Positions 54,052 to 58,527 of a DNA stretch of 64,000 bases are shown here, one piece after another. A model generated the notes under the pieces. The model made no database searches. It had not been told where the DNA came from and worked only from the letters and a program-made list of their open reading frames with translations. Location of the stretch: NCBI RefSeq assembly GCF_054482525.1, contig NZ_CM137006.1. One strand, 5' to 3'. Both the position numbers and the translations under genes were made by a program. The number at the start of each line of letters is the position of its first letter. Within the stretch, counting starts at the first letter, position 1.

Positions 54052-54074
54052 TTTACTTTTTTGGAGATTGATTG

Positions 54075-54464
54075 ATGAGCAACGTACCAGCAGAACTGAA
54101 ATACAGCAAAGAACACGAATGGCTGCGTAAAGAAGCCGACGGCACTTACACCGTTGGCATCACCGAACACGCTCAGGAGCTGTTAGGCGATATGGTGTTT
54201 GTTGACCTGCCGGAAGTGGGCGCAACGGTTAGCGCGGGCGATGACTGCGCGGTTGCCGAATCAGTAAAAGCGGCGTCAGACATTTATGCGCCAGTAAGCG
54301 GTGAAATCGTGGCGGTAAACGACGCACTGAGCGATTCCCCGGAACTGGTGAACAGCGAACCGTATGCAGGCGGCTGGATCTTTAAAATCAAAGCCAGCGA
54401 TGAAAGCGAACTGGAATCACTGCTGGATGCGACCGCATACGAAGCATTGTTAGAAGACGAGTAA
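54075..54464 (+). CDS. gcvH: Glycine cleavage system H protein, 129 aa
   Basis: Start [16 protein letters not shown]; lipoyl-lysine region ESVKAASD. Confidence 0.95.
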
Positions 54465-54484
54465 CGGCTTTATTCCTCTTCTGC

Positions 54485-54546
54485 GGGAGAGGATCAGGGT
54501 GAGGAACTTTTACGCCTCACCCTCACTCTCTTCGCAAGGAGAGAGG
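54485..54546. repeat. Intergenic imperfect palindromic element (GGGAGAGG..AGGGTGAGG / CCTCACCCTCACTCTC) between gcvH and gcvP
   Basis: Inverted repeat read from sequence; shares its core with the element at 57535-57638. Confidence 0.4.
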
Positions 54547-54582
54547 TTCACAATTCACTGCACGTTTCAGGAACCATCGCTC

Positions 54583-57456
54583 ATGACACAGACGTTAAGC
54601 CAGCTTGAAAACAGCGGCGCTTTTATTGAACGCCATATCGGACCGGATGCCGCGCAACAGCAAGAAATGCTGAATGCCGTTGGCGCACAATCGTTAAACG
54701 CGCTGACCGGCCAGATTGTGCCGAAAGATATTCAGCTTGCGACCCCGCCGCAGGTTGGCGCACCGGCGACCGAATACGCCGCGCTGGCGGAACTCAAGGC
54801 TATTGCCAGTCGCAATAAACGCTTCACGTCTTACATCGGCATGGGTTACACCGCCGTGCAGCTACCGCCGGTTATCCTGCGTAATATGCTGGAAAATCCG
54901 GGCTGGTATACCGCGTATACTCCGTATCAACCTGAAGTCTCCCAGGGCCGCCTTGAAGCACTGCTCAACTTCCAGCAGGTAACGCTGGATTTAACCGGGC
55001 TGGATATGGCCTCTGCTTCTCTTCTTGACGAAGCCACCGCTGCCGCCGAAGCAATGGCGATGGCGAAACGCGTCAGCAAACTGAAAAATGCCAACCGCTT
55101 CTTCGTGGCTTCCGATGTGCATCCGCAAACGCTGGATGTGGTCCGTACTCGTGCCGAAACCTTTGGTTTTGAAGTGATTGTCGATGATGCGCAAAAAGTG
55201 CTCGACCATCAGGACGTCTTCGGCGTGCTGTTACAGCAGGTTGGCACTACCGGTGAAATTCACGACTACACTGCGCTCATCAGCGAACTGAAATCACGCA
55301 AAATTGTGGTCAGTGTCGCCGCCGATATTATGGCGCTGGTGCTGTTAACTGCGCCGGGTAAACAGGGCGCGGATATTGTCTTTGGTTCGGCGCAACGCTT
55401 CGGTGTGCCGATGGGCTACGGTGGCCCACACGCAGCATTCTTTGCGGCGAAAGATGAATACAAACGCTCAATGCCGGGCCGTATTATCGGTGTATCGAAA
55501 GATGCAGCTGGCAATACCGCTCTGCGCATGGCGATGCAGACTCGCGAGCAACATATTCGCCGTGAGAAAGCGAACTCCAACATTTGTACTTCCCAGGTAC
55601 TGCTGGCAAACATCGCCAGCCTGTATGCCGTTTATCACGGCCCGGTTGGCCTGAAACGTATCGCTAACCGCATTCACCGTCTGACCGATATCCTGGCGGC
55701 AGGCCTGCAACAAAAAGGTCTGAAGCTGCGCCATGCGCACTATTTCGACACTCTGTGTGTGGAAGTGGCCGACAAGGCGGGCGTACTGGCGCGTGCCGAA
55801 GCGGCTGAAATCAACCTGCGTAGCGATATCCTGAACGCGGTTGGGATCACCCTTGATGAAACCACCACGCGCGAAAACGTGATGCAGCTTTTCAGCGTAC
55901 TGCTGGGGGATAACCACGGCCTGGACATCGACACGCTGGACAAAGACGTGGCTCACGACAGCCGCTCTATCCAGCCTGCGATGCTGCGCGACGACGAAAT
56001 CCTCACCCATCCGGTGTTTAATCGCTACCACAGCGAAACCGAAATGATGCGCTATATGCACTCGCTGGAGCGTAAAGATCTGGCGCTGAATCAGGCGATG
56101 ATCCCGCTGGGTTCCTGCACCATGAAACTGAACGCCGCCGCCGAGATGATCCCCATCACCTGGCCGGAATTTGCCGAACTGCACCCGTTCTGCCCGCCGG
56201 AACAGGCAGAAGGTTATCAGCAGATGATTGCGCAGTTGGCTGACTGGCTGGTGAAACTGACCGGTTACGACGCCGTTTGTATGCAGCCGAACTCCGGCGC
56301 ACAGGGCGAATACGCGGGCCTGCTGGCGATTCGTCATTATCATGAAAGCCGCAACGAAGGGCATCGCGATATCTGCCTGATCCCGGCTTCTGCGCACGGA
56401 ACTAACCCCGCTTCTGCACATATGGCAGGAATGCAGGTGGTGGTTGTGGCGTGTGATAAAAACGGCAACATCGATCTGGCTGATCTGCGCGCGAAAGCGG
56501 AACAAGCGGGCGATAACCTCTCCTGTATCATGGTGACCTATCCTTCCACCCACGGCGTGTATGAAGAAACGATCCGTGAAGTGTGTGAAGTCGTGCATCA
56601 GTTCGGCGGTCAGGTTTACCTTGATGGCGCGAACATGAACGCCCAGGTCGGCATCACCTCACCGGGCTTTATTGGCGCGGACGTCTCGCACCTTAACCTG
56701 CATAAAACTTTCTGCATTCCGCACGGTGGCGGCGGCCCAGGTATGGGACCGATCGGCGTGAAAGCGCATCTGGCACCGTTTGTGCCAGGTCATAGCGTGG
56801 TACAAATAGAAGGCATGTTAACCCGTCAGGGCGCGGTTTCTGCGGCACCGTTCGGTAGCGCATCCATTCTGCCAATCAGCTGGATGTACATCCGCATGAT
56901 GGGCGCAGAAGGGCTGAAAAAAGCAAGCCAGGTGGCAATCCTCAACGCCAACTATATTGCCAGCCGCCTGCAGGATGCCTTCCCGGTGCTGTATACCGGT
57001 CGCGACGGTCGCGTGGCGCACGAATGTATTCTCGATATTCGCCCGCTGAAAGAAGAAACCGGCATCAGCGAACTGGATATTGCCAAGCGTCTGATCGACT
57101 ACGGTTTCCACGCGCCGACCATGTCGTTCCCGGTGGCGGGTACGCTGATGGTTGAACCGACTGAATCTGAAAGCAAAGTGGAACTGGATCGCTTTATCGA
57201 CGCGATGCTGGCTATCCGCGCAGAAATTGACCAGGTGAAAGCCGGTGTCTGGCCGCTGGAAGATAACCCGCTGGTGAACGCGCCGCACATTCAGAGCGAA
57301 CTGGTCGCCGAGTGGGCGCATCCGTACAGCCGTGAAGTTGCGGTATTCCCGGCAGGCGTGGCAGACAAATACTGGCCGACAGTGAAACGTCTGGATGATG
57401 TTTACGGCGACCGTAACCTGTTCTGCTCCTGCGTACCGATTAGCGAATACCAGTAA
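54583..57456 (+). CDS. gcvP: Glycine dehydrogenase (decarboxylating) GcvP, 957 aa
   Basis: Start [21 protein letters not shown] at ATG 54583. Confidence 0.95.
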
Positions 57457-57479
57457 TTCACTGATTCGACTATCTTCTA

Positions 57480-57501
57480 AAGGCGCTTCGGCGCCTTTTT
57501 A
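57480..57501 (+). terminator. Rho-independent terminator after gcvP
   Basis: AGGCGC-TTCG-GCGCCT followed by TTTTT. Confidence 0.55.
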
Positions 57502-57534
57502 GTCAGATGACAAAGTACAAAAGTGCTCAGACAG

Positions 57535-57638
57535 TCCCCTCGCCCCTTTGGGGAGAGGGTTAGGGTGAGGGGAACAGGCCGGCACTGGCGCGAATATTTA
57601 CCCTCACCCCGGCCCTCTCCCCAAAGGGGCGAGGGGGA
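57535..57638. repeat. ~100-bp imperfect palindromic intergenic repeat
   Basis: CCCCTCGCCCCTTTGGGGAGAGGGTTAGGGTGAGGGG ... CCCTCACCCCGGCCCTCTCCCCAAAGGGGCGAGGGG; arms are reverse complements. Confidence 0.5.
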
Positions 57639-57722
57639 AAAGCGTGCCAACATTGAAGATTGAGCCAGTTTGTTAGCAATCTCAAAGATACGTCAACGAA
57701 TTAATTTTTCCAGGAAAAACAA

Positions 57723-58466
57723 TTGGCTATAGCACTTGTGACCGGTGGCAGTCGCGGCATCGGGCGGGCAACTGCATTACTGTTGGCGCAAGAAGGGTAT
57801 ACGGTGGCGGTTAATTATCAGCAAAACCTCCACGCGGCGCAGGAAGTGGTGAACTTAATCACGCAAGCTGGTGGCAAGGCATTCGTGCTCCAGGCGGATA
57901 TCAGCGACGAAAATCAGGTCGTCGAGATGTTTACCGCAATCGATCTGCACGATGAACCGCTAGCCGCACTGGTCAATAACGCCGGGATCTTGTTTACCCA
58001 GTGCACCGTAGAAAACCTTACCGCAGAGCGAATCAACCGGGTACTTTCCACCAATGTGACGGGACATTTTCTCTGTTGCCGCGAGGCGGTAAAACGCATG
58101 GCGCTGAAAAATGGCGGTAATGGCGGTGCTATCGTCAACGTCTCTTCAGTGGCCTCACGGCTGGGATCTCCGGGGGAATACGTTGATTATGCGGCATCGA
58201 AAGGGGCGATTGATACGTTAACCACAGGGCTGTCGCTGGAAGTCGCTGCGCAAGGAATTCGCGTTAATGGCGTGCGGCCCGGTTTTATCTATACCGGAAT
58301 GCACGCCAGCGGTGGCGAACCTGGACGCGTTGATCGCGTTAAGTCGAACATCCCCATGCAGCGCGGTGGGCAGGCGGAAGAGGTCGCGCAGGCCATCGTC
58401 TGGCTGTTAAGTGATAAAGCCTCTTATGTCACGGGAAGTTTTATCGATTTGGCGGGCGGAAAATAA
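57723..58466 (+). CDS. ygfF: Short-chain dehydrogenase/reductase YgfF, 247 aa
   Basis: TGGSRGIG cofactor motif; TTG start as in ORF track. Confidence 0.8.
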   Translation: MAIALVTGGSRGIGRATALLLAQEGYTVAVNYQQNLHAAQEVVNLITQAGGKAFVLQADISDENQVVEMFTAIDLHDEPLAALVNNAGILFTQCTVENLTAERINRVLSTNVTGHFLCCREAVKRMALKNGGNGGAIVNVSSVASRLGSPGEYVDYAASKGAIDTLTTGLSLEVAAQGIRVNGVRPGFIYTGMHASGGEPGRVDRVKSNIPMQRGGQAEEVAQAIVWLLSDKASYVTGSFIDLAGGK

Positions 58467-58475
58467 GATGGGAAA

Positions 58476-58512
58476 GTTATCTGACCGGATGCAACACAAT
58501 TGGCGTTGCATC
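58476..58512. terminator. Palindromic hairpin between convergent ygfF and bglA (bidirectional terminator or REP-like)
   Basis: CCGGATGCAAC...GTTGCATCCGG inverted repeat. Confidence 0.4.
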
Positions 58513-58527
58513 CGGCACATCAGATAA

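Follow-up and report, generated by a model that had tools for sequence, protein, structure and literature searches.

Two BoxC-family repeats flank gcvP: an intact downstream pair and an eroded copy at an RNA 3' end in the gcvH–gcvP spacer

BoxC repeats, for which PIT elements (Hoyne/Maher 2000) and TMECO are other names, have been known since the 1990s. They are G+C-rich, three-block, imperfectly palindromic intergenic repeats of Enterobacteriaceae (Holder et al., 2015, PMC4666352), and their unit consensus is CCCTCNCCC-N3-6-GGGNGAGGG-N3-GGGNGAGGG. Inverted pairing of a type-A with a type-B unit is the rule for all five pairs of E. coli K-12, and single-stranded oligonucleotides of both types form an intrastrand triplex in vitro, as observed by CD and NMR (Holder et al., 2015, PMC4666352). 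Earlier BoxC tests of promoter, terminator and in vivo triplex activity were negative; the summary by Holder et al. of the work of Hoyne and Maher reports neither promoter nor terminator activity of PIT elements in functional tests, and includes no test of RNA stability.

Palindromic repeats of another family, REP/BIME, have been described as stabilisers or attenuators of mRNA within operons, one example lying between malE and malF (Higgins/Newbury 1988 and Espeli 2001, both cited by PMC2267715). In the gcvTHP transcription unit of Dickeya dadantii, termination after gcvH amounts to ~71% (PMC9239193).

Here we analyse two related palindromes on either side of E. coli gcvP, one in the gcvH–gcvP spacer and one downstream of the gcvP terminator, within a 64-kb stretch of DNA (the window). 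Both are BoxC copies. The downstream copy is intact and most likely passive; the spacer copy is eroded, and for it we infer a role at RNA ends as an exonuclease barrier. We consider this account as a whole likely. The BoxC family is not new, and the two-element observation is a known repeat family rediscovered, which matters little alone because the family is known and the genome is the best studied among bacteria.

Two members of one family in the window

The gene calls of the initial annotation were all correct (gcvH, 54072-54464; gcvP, 54583-57456; gcvP terminator, 57482-57500). A 985-codon open reading frame from GTG 54499 is an in-frame upstream extension of gcvP over the spacer and was rejected; the true start is ATG 54583. 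The features of both intergenic regions are as follows.

54474-54546, + strand: eroded BoxC palindrome with six degenerate blocks (profiles; intact BoxC at the same site elsewhere)
54474-54493, + strand: hairpin 1, block 1 UCCUCUUC paired with block 2 GGAGAGGA, the latter within GGGAGAGG, 54485-54492 (RNA fold)
54496-54523, + strand: hairpin 2, block 3 AGGGUGAGG paired with block 3' CCUCACCCU, with a 10-nt loop at 54505-54514 (RNA folds)
54526-54545, + strand: hairpin 3, block 2' CUCUCUUC paired with block 1' GGAGAGAG (RNA fold)
54527, + strand: position orthologous to the K-12 Term-seq 3' end 3,049,097(-), 4 nt past hairpin 2 (coordinate checked against the K-12 locus)
54553-54582, + strand: conserved 30-nt leader ATTCACTGCACGTTTCAGGAACCATCGCTC with the gcvP ribosome-binding site, outside the repeat (cross-genus conservation)
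57482-57500, + strand: gcvP intrinsic terminator, GGCGC-TTCG-GCGCC followed by T5 (direct reading; kept in other genera)
57537-57571, + strand: intact type-A unit of BoxC/TMECO with TTA as its second loop, CCCTCGCCCCTTTGGGGAGAGGGTTAGGGTGAGGG (strict consensus, HMM, identity to TMECO 11)
57572-57600, no strand: central spacer between the inverted units (direct reading, arm search, fold)
57601-57635, - strand: intact type-B unit of BoxC/TMECO with CCG as its second loop, inverted relative to the type-A unit (strict consensus, HMM, orthologue of TMECO 10)

The window contains the motif GGGAGAGG-N3-AGGGTGAGG at exactly two places, 54485 and 57551, each time opposite an inverted CCTCACCC arm. When the gap was relaxed to N(1-6), the window again gave two exact matches (54485-54504 and 57551-57570), while 100 dinucleotide-preserving shuffles gave none. 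GGGTGAGG or its complement was found at 54497(+), 54515(-), 57563(+) and 57602(-); one further match, at 56001 inside gcvP, is due to chance. The inverted arms measure 29 nt each in the spacer element (54476-54504 and 54515-54543; 72% complementarity) and 39 nt each in the downstream element (57536-57574 and 57598-57636; 90%), confirming that both are imperfect palindromes.

A full-palindrome profile was built from the gcvH–gcvP spacers of eight genera other than Escherichia. Its matches in the window were confined to the two elements, with E = 6e-15 and 1e-11 at 57.5 kb and E = 1.7e-8 and 1.6e-6 at 54.5 kb; the next best match had E = 1.1. An HMM built from 21 other K-12 BoxC units matched the four arms of the two elements and nothing else in the window. 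Its scores were E = 2.2e-12 for 57537-57571(+) and 1.4e-10 for 57601-57635(-) in the downstream element, and E = 0.0068 for the + arm (54482-54504) and 2 for the - arm of the spacer element. The strict TMECO pattern matched the window solely at the two downstream units, where chance predicts no match at all. A genome-wide family model recovers the spacer copy above background, and the spacer elements of Enterobacter are related to dispersed BoxC copies.

These searches bear out the initial annotation's central claim that the two elements belong to one family, since both the 8-genus profile and the K-12 unit HMM find them together; their formal alignment, whose failure it had named as a refutation, lies, by profile search, far beyond chance. 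Comparison with boxC, another of its suggestions, supplied the answer. Its notion of a less-characterised intergenic repeat family was right about membership in a family, but that family is already published as BoxC/PIT/TMECO. Two details needed correction. The spacer element had been given a start at 54485, whereas its left edge lies at ~54474, since GGGAGAGG has a pairing partner further left in CCTCTTC, the degenerate first block; the end at 54546 stands. The hexamer CTCTCC, described as common to both elements, reads CTCTCT in the spacer.

It is extremely improbable that both elements are REP/BIME or ERIC variants, or that they resemble each other by chance or through G+C-rich low complexity. 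They are G+C-rich intergenic palindromes, as REP is, and a true REP-like palindrome lies nearby (58485-58515). On direct reading, however, the REP core GCCGGATG...CATCCGGC and the ERIC core are missing from both, in keeping with the initial annotation's view that neither is a canonical REP or ERIC, and the genuine REP and ERIC sequences with which Citrobacter and Kluyvera fill this spacer bear little likeness to them. The REP core does occur in Citrobacter and Lelliottia spacers and at 58485-58515 of the window. Chance is excluded by the shuffles, the HMM, the 8-genus profile, the strict pattern and a 20-mer comparison (described below). An Rfam scan of 52-60 kb with an E-value threshold identified no known RNA family: nothing reached the gathering score, and the weaker hits were to generic hairpin models, miRNA precursors among them. 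A MITE-like insertion signature is not supported, because no target-site duplications are evident by eye beside either element.

The intact downstream pair

The downstream element is an intact inverted pair of one type-A and one type-B unit, carrying the strict unit consensus on both strands and obeying the A+B pairing rule (+ arm TTA, - arm CCG). Its type-A unit is identical to TMECO 11 (Holder et al., 2015, Table 1), and its type-B unit differs from K-12 TMECO 10 by three clustered bases, all in loop 1. TMECO 10 and 11 occupy K-12 positions 3,045,989-3,046,087 (Holder et al., 2015, PMC4666352); the downstream element is their orthologue, in an intergenic region that is 99% identical between K-12 and the window. 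The + arm of the window has exactly the sequence from which a published mutated control oligonucleotide was derived (PMC4666352). The pair folds whole as one long hairpin (region z = -8.1).

This intergenic element lies between the gcvP terminator and ygfF, where it was inserted in the Escherichia lineage. The 126-nt downstream element is a dispersed repeat: 5408 of 5426 E. coli genomes contain it, at a median of 17 places each. At the present locus, the ygfF-containing segment with the pair is found in 3026 of the 5426 genomes, the pair being absent, along with ygfF, from ~44%. At least three alternative versions of this segment exist, with a single common breakpoint at 57502. No Term-seq 3' ends were found inside the element in the coordinate prefixes searched, which span ~90% of its extent in K-12.

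The initial annotation had suggested that both repeats could act as mRNA stabilisers or decay barriers that tune gcvTHP expression. Such a role is unsupported for the downstream copy, because it lies beyond the gcvP terminator, no 3' end was found inside the part searched, and it is strain-variable; most likely, it is a passive or selfish repeat. The proposal fares better in the spacer, where a Term-seq 3' end follows a hairpin.

The eroded spacer copy and its RNA 3' end

The spacer element is transcribed within the gcvTHP mRNA. It fails to match the strict TMECO pattern: decay has left its blocks as CCTCTTC, GGGAGAGG and GGGTGAGG. Its left arm is identical to the type-A block 2-loop-block 3 20-mer at 18 of 20 positions, and judged from its sequence it is best described as an eroded BoxC derivative rather than a strict member. 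RNA folding, which had been suggested as a check, yielded stable structures for this element (MFE -44.3 kcal/mol, z = -4.4) as it did for the downstream region. Hairpins 1 and 2 also appear in the fold of an RNA ending at 54527. In an alternative fold, block 2' pairs with block 2 to give one long hairpin, and the MFE and centroid structures disagree on this point.

All but one of 5426 E. coli genomes (5425) have a single copy of the spacer, and its alignment between the window and K-12 is gap-free. Five aligned E. coli strains show no difference in the blocks, nearly all variation falling in loops. Strains differ in the loop of hairpin 2, and beside this central loop TW10590 carries a 6-nt duplication. 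The 30-nt leader is kept across Enterobacteriaceae genera whichever repeat occupies the remaining spacer.

We compared this spacer across the 80 loci listed, among which Salmonella, E. albertii and E. fergusonii do not figure. Strict TMECO units occur in the spacers of Enterobacter cloacae, E. wuhouensis, E. asburiae, Pseudocitrobacter, strain RIT691 and Pluralibacter gergoviae, where they have the same boundaries as in E. coli, beginning 8-12 nt past the gcvH stop codon. What E. coli carries here is thus an ancient pair in eroded form, while other genera have intact BoxC. The units are not oriented alike in all genera, which hints at repeated insertions, so that descent from one ancestral insertion is not proven. 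Photorhabdus, Providencia, Serratia, Yersinia, Dickeya, Pantoea and Alishewanella carry a hairpin and T-run terminator at the same position; REP sequences fill the spacer in Citrobacter, Lelliottia, Kosakonia and others, and ERIC in Citrobacter youngae CCUG 30791, C. freundii and Kluyvera. Folding z-scores were negative in all 76 spacers of at least 40 nt. Covariation among nine BoxC-type spacers is weak: the consensus is one long hairpin with double changes at 8 of 21 pairs, but the covariation term is +0.3 and the alignment contains register shifts. Arm-to-arm conversion of DNA could likewise maintain the complementarity of a palindrome.

That one spacer has been refilled by BoxC, REP or ERIC suggests selection for any stable hairpin at this position, not for a given sequence. 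Intra-operon spacers may also merely tolerate palindromic repeats, and such occupancy is therefore no proof of selection.

Term-seq of MG1655 places an abundant RNA 3' end at 3,049,097(-) (PMC7815308, Supplementary file 1). Three entries in the file concern this end, with average read counts of 412,219 (LB OD 0.4 sheet) and 171,112 (second sheet), and its authors class it there only as 'orphan'. A second 3' end, 3,046,123, corresponds to window position 57501 at the gcvP terminator; the spacer end has ~11 times its reads (412,219 vs 36,065). Term-seq does not discriminate between two origins of such an end, a full-length gcvTH mRNA and a small, stable piece of hairpin RNA left by decay. At least five other BoxC-like K-12 loci carry Term-seq 3' ends, four of them 3-4 nt and one 10 nt past the block 1:block 2 hairpin. 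No Rho-termination regions are listed in the intervals of the file searched around 3,049,097, and the text and supplements of Yan 2018 contain nothing on gcv.

The combination of a G+C-rich hairpin and a T-run that marks an intrinsic terminator is lacking in the spacer and present at 57482-57500. In a promoter and terminator scan, nothing resembling a promoter came up in 54-58 kb, nor anything resembling a terminator on the + strand of the spacer; it overlooked the obvious gcvP terminator because its stem extension consumed part of the T-run.

Proposed role and comparison with known systems

Because the spacer copy is located exactly at an abundant RNA end, it probably helps to set the level of GcvT and GcvH relative to GcvP. 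In the mechanism we propose, it would fold into stable hairpins within the gcvTHP transcript, and RNA 3' ends would pile up 4 nt past the central hairpin, most likely through stalling of 3'-to-5' exonucleases there. The gcvT-gcvH RNA could then outlive or outnumber gcvP RNA, and the copy would take the role that an intrinsic terminator at the same position plays in more distant Enterobacterales. The analysis shows the family identity, the fold, where the RNA end lies and how elements at this site have turned over between genera, whereas the exonuclease barrier and any effect on the GcvH:GcvP ratio are inferred; for the spacer copy only, a decay barrier with differential expression is plausible.

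RNA polymerase might instead stop at the hairpin with no exonuclease stalling, the relic being a non-canonical partial terminator, or attenuator. A true intrinsic terminator stands at this position in distant relatives, the internal end of Dickeya was called a termination site at the efficiency quoted above, with E. coli studies said to agree (PMC9239193), and an attenuator function has been reported for BIME/REP (Espeli 2001, via PMC2267715). We nevertheless think attenuation unlikely: no T-run follows any E. coli spacer hairpin, the scan detected no + strand terminator there, the 3' end lies a mere 4 nt past the stem, PIT elements lacked terminator activity in the functional tests as summarised by Holder et al. 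(2015, PMC4666352), and the intervals searched list no Rho region. The 3' end could also belong to a small stable hairpin fragment cut out by endonucleases, RNase III or RNase E for instance, and thus be a decay by-product of a neutral relic that leaves gcv expression unaffected. The long-hairpin fold is a plausible double-stranded RNA substrate and has the 3' end within its 3' arm, at an internal loop; Term-seq counts reflect RNA end stability, not transcript throughput, and the 'orphan' class given by the authors would suit such a fragment. This account is unlikely, given that full-length RNA methods in E. coli are cited for transcripts ending past gcvH (PMC9239193) and that a structured element is kept at the spacer site in almost every relative examined.

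An action at the level of DNA, in which BoxC intrastrand triplexes or cruciforms disturb replication and promote local rearrangement, is compatible with the RNA reading and has a modest chance of being correct. It draws on the in vitro triplex and on the finding that sequences near TMECO loci vary more (Holder et al., 2015, PMC4666352), on the patchy distribution and common breakpoint of the segment with the downstream pair, and on the strain-variable central loop of the spacer copy with the adjoining TW10590 duplication. In vivo DMS footprinting, however, yielded no sign that a stable triplex forms (Holder et al., 2015, PMC4666352), the spacer copy is stable although it lacks three intact blocks, and the breakpoint lies at the terminator, 35 nt from the BoxC pair.

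The K-12 'orphan' RNA 3' end at 3,049,097 falling on a BoxC relic is a concrete, testable link, and it stands beside the RNA ends at several other BoxC copies and a spacer filled by terminator, BoxC, REP or ERIC according to genus. The relic may be a working intra-operon RNA-end element, which would be a modest new lead. More tentatively, and with somewhat less than even confidence, we suggest that a decayed BoxC was taken over as an RNA-end or stability element separating gcvT-gcvH from gcvP, in replacement of an ancestral intrinsic terminator, and that BoxC hairpins may define 3' ends genome-wide. If confirmed, selfish palindromic repeats would have been recruited to set subunit ratios within an operon, and a family listed for 30 years as 'function unknown' would have its first cellular role.

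Among described systems, BoxC itself is the closest. The downstream element is typical of it, with inverted A+B units, an intergenic position and the strict consensus on both strands. The spacer copy shares the block order and the bases beside the central spacer (GGGTGAGG..AAC and TTTAC..CCTCACCC), but it is absent from the 23 listed K-12 TMECOs and, whereas typical BoxC loci are variable, it is not. With REP/BIME it has in common a palindrome between cistrons, the lack of a U-run and an RNA 3' end just past the hairpin; it differs in sequence family and lacks the REP core, and the three blocks of BoxC allow alternative folds, as three short hairpins or one long one. ERIC/IRU elements are likewise imperfect palindromes, intergenic and transcribed, and occupy the same spacer in some genera, but they are unrelated in sequence and longer (about 127 bp). 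The internal terminator of Dickeya matches the spacer copy in its position directly past gcvH and in the proposed outcome, more gcvT-gcvH than gcvP transcript. Where Dickeya, Providencia, Serratia and Yersinia have a classic hairpin and T-run, E. coli has a repeat-derived hairpin with no T-run.

Two palindromes of one repeat family

The window is E. coli DNA; across gcvT–ygfF it shares 97.1% identity with K-12, and its genes run gcvT–gcvH–gcvP–ygfF–bglA. A pattern search for GGGAGAGG-N(1-6)-AGGGTGAGG returned exactly two matches in the 64 kb, starting at 54485 and 57551, and none in 100 shuffles of the sequence. An inverted CCTCACCC arm lies opposite each copy, confirming the initial annotation's claim that two related palindromes flank gcvP. 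The palindrome in the gcvH–gcvP spacer has 29-nt arms with 72% complementarity and a true left edge at about 54474; the one downstream of gcvP has 39-nt arms with 90% complementarity.

The 126-nt element downstream of gcvP recurs as a dispersed repeat: of 5426 complete E. coli genomes, 5408 match it, nearly always on the chromosome, in up to 29 places per genome (median 17). The family has carried three names, first BoxC in the 1990s, next PIT element (Hoyne/Maher 2000) and later TMECO; its motif is described by Holder et al. 2015 (PMC4666352). The TMECO consensus is CCCTCNCCC-N3-6-GGGNGAGGG-N3-GGGNGAGGG; a second loop of TTA marks a unit as type A and one of CCG as type B, and K-12 has 23 units, among which are five inverted pairs that each join a type-A to a type-B unit (PMC4666352). 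Scanned over the window with this strict pattern, only the downstream element matched, and the spacer element did not.

Strict TMECO matches in the window
57537-57571, + strand, type-A unit
57601-57635, - strand, type-B unit

TMECO 10+11 in Table 1 of Holder et al. 2015 (MG1655 3,045,989-3,046,087; PMC4666352) is the ygfF–gcvP intergenic region and shares 99% identity with its counterpart in the window. A separate survey likewise includes BoxC among known E. coli families, quoting 56 bp and 32 copies from the literature and recovering 22 with its own model (PMC2267715). Judged by this orthology and the published surveys, the downstream element is an already catalogued repeat. The less-characterised intergenic family suggested in the initial annotation is one already known, BoxC, and one of the two copies appears in a published table (PMC4666352). 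In the type-B arm, loop 1 has three clustered substitutions (57620-57628; CCCCAAAGGGG in the window, CCCTGAAAGGG in K-12) that bring the window's palindrome closer to perfect than that of K-12, which would fit arm-to-arm conversion.

Three tests place the spacer element in the same family. In the window, an HMM trained on 21 K-12 TMECO units, with the gcvP-downstream locus excluded from training, matched at four places only: the downstream arms, at E = 2e-12 and 1e-10, and the pair of spacer arms, exactly inverted in register, at E = 0.0068 and E = 2. Among 80 gcvH loci fetched from other species, strict TMECO units occupy the gcvH–gcvP spacer of Enterobacter cloacae, E. wuhouensis, E. asburiae, Pseudocitrobacter, strain RIT691 and Pluralibacter gergoviae, beginning 8-12 nt past the gcvH stop codon and stopping just short of a conserved 30-nt leader; these are the boundaries of the E. 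coli spacer element. Finally, a profile of eight BoxC-bearing non-Escherichia spacers matched both the 57.5 kb (E = 6e-15 and 1e-11) and the 54.5 kb element (E = 1.7e-8 and 1.6e-6) and nothing else in the window at E < 1, so that the two do belong to one family (E <= 1.6e-6 for both). All six blocks (1-2-3 and, inverted, 3'-2'-1') are present in the spacer element in decayed form, and the bases beside the central region are kept (GGGTGAGG..AAC and TTTAC..CCTCACCC). By sequence, then, the spacer holds an eroded BoxC pair.

An RNA 3' end at the spacer element

The spacer RNA has a computed folding energy of -44.3 kcal/mol (z = -4.4), with two alternative predicted folds, three hairpins or one long hairpin. 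MG1655 Term-seq (Adams et al. 2021, PMC7815308, Supplementary file 1) places an RNA 3' end, in three entries and classed by the authors as 'orphan', at 3,049,097(-), with 412,219 average reads at LB OD 0.4 versus 36,065 at the gcvP terminator end, 3,046,123. Checked against the K-12 sequence, this position is window 54527, 4 nt past the block 3:block 3' hairpin; an RNA ending there is predicted to form two hairpins (-33.5 kcal/mol). For the flanking intervals searched, the dataset lists no Rho-termination region (PMC7815308). In Dickeya, a strong internal transcript end follows gcvH (~71% termination), and E. coli studies are said to agree (PMC9239193).

At least five other BoxC or BoxC-like MG1655 loci coincide with Term-seq 3' ends (PMC7815308), four lying 3-4 nt and one 10 nt past the CCCTCNCCC-loop-GGGNGAGGG (block 1:block 2) hairpin, and none of the five with a U-run.

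3' ends at other BoxC or BoxC-like loci in K-12 (Adams 2021, Supplementary file 1)
632,098(+)
847,200(-)
3,781,065(+)
3,959,467(-)
4,231,270(-)

The analysis shows which family the element belongs to, how it folds, where the RNA end lies and how abundant it is, and that elements at this site turn over from genus to genus; the mechanism is inferred. The spacer hairpin would act mainly as a barrier to 3'-to-5' exonucleases, leaving more gcvT–gcvH RNA than gcvP RNA. We favour this over a weak terminator, which is less likely because the hairpin lacks a U-run and PIT elements had no terminator activity in functional tests (summarised in PMC4666352). The end might also possibly belong to a stable decay fragment, Term-seq being blind to what RNA a 3' end belongs to. 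An exonuclease barrier at the spacer copy would agree with the earlier suggestion of decay barriers tuning differential expression, given the abundant end 4 nt past its hairpin. For the downstream pair neither that suggestion nor any other RNA role is supported: no 3' end is listed inside it across the ~90% of its K-12 span covered by the search (PMC7815308).

Conservation and turnover in the gcvH–gcvP spacer

Of 5426 E. coli genomes, 5425 have the spacer copy, each at a single place. In five diverse strains every block is invariant, and variation is limited to loops (the central loop, a GCAA/GTAA loop) and a 6-nt duplication in TW10590, where CCTCAC is repeated at the 3' arm of the hairpin; the variable central loop of the hairpin is 10 nt long (54505-54514), between invariant stem blocks.

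Folding z-scores are negative for all spacers of 40 nt or more in the 80 loci. Distant taxa (Photorhabdus, Providencia, Serratia, Yersinia, Dickeya, Pantoea, Alishewanella) carry a hairpin plus T-run terminator; Enterobacteriaceae proper have BoxC, REP/BIME or ERIC instead.

Repeats in the gcvH–gcvP spacer (L005-L084)
BoxC: Escherichia, Enterobacter, Pluralibacter, Pseudocitrobacter
REP/BIME: Citrobacter, Lelliottia, Kosakonia
ERIC: C. youngae CCUG 30791, C. freundii, Kluyvera

In three loci (L021, L023, L029) just a short CCCTCTCCC-N4-GGGAGAGGG hairpin is left. The 30-nt leader ATTCACTGCACGTTTCAGGAACCATCGCTC (54553-54582), directly upstream of the gcvP ATG and including the ribosome-binding site, is kept across Enterobacteriaceae genera while different repeats replace the remaining spacer. 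BoxC orientation differs by genus (L011, L020, L022, L030; ~5390-5480 of each locus), the type-A arm being the left one in E. wuhouensis and the right one in E. cloacae, E. asburiae and Pseudocitrobacter, which may reflect repeated insertion at a single site or arm-to-arm conversion.

The segment downstream of gcvP

Of 5426 E. coli genomes, only 3026 carry the segment with the downstream pair. At least three alternative versions of the gcvP–bglA interval (57502-58527) exist in Escherichia, and their common breakpoint is 57502, directly after the T-run of the gcvP terminator.

Versions of the gcvP–bglA interval
Window 57502-58527: BoxC pair, ygfF and REP; 3026/5426 genomes
L002 1620-1740 and L003 1624-1742: ~120 bp and REP, without BoxC pair or ygfF; UTI89 and O157:H7
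L007 8427-9780: a different insert, ~1.4 kb with a 298-aa, outer-membrane-protein-like ORF; divergent Escherichia

Elsewhere in the Enterobacteriaceae, the gcvP terminator leads directly into the ribosome-binding site and ATG of ygfF (gap 57-80 nt); in E. coli the corresponding interval (57503-57725) has ~190 extra bases, including the BoxC pair. The position of ygfF in other genera argues that these bases are an Escherichia-lineage insertion. The E. coli ygfF start codon is TTG, and the gene may be on its way to loss. A REP-like palindrome, CCGGATGCAACACAATTGGCGTTGCATCCGG, lies at 58485-58515 between the convergent ygfF and bglA; its K-12 orthologue carries a 'primary' bglA 3' end at 3,045,144(+) (PMC7815308).

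Overall, the initial annotation's observation holds and its interpretation does so in part, the family being the known BoxC. As a modest new lead, a BoxC relic may serve as a functional intra-operon RNA-end element. The best reading of the downstream pair is a passive repeat within a segment prone to rearrangement, consistent with the association of TMECO repeats with genomic instability made by Holder et al. (PMC4666352).
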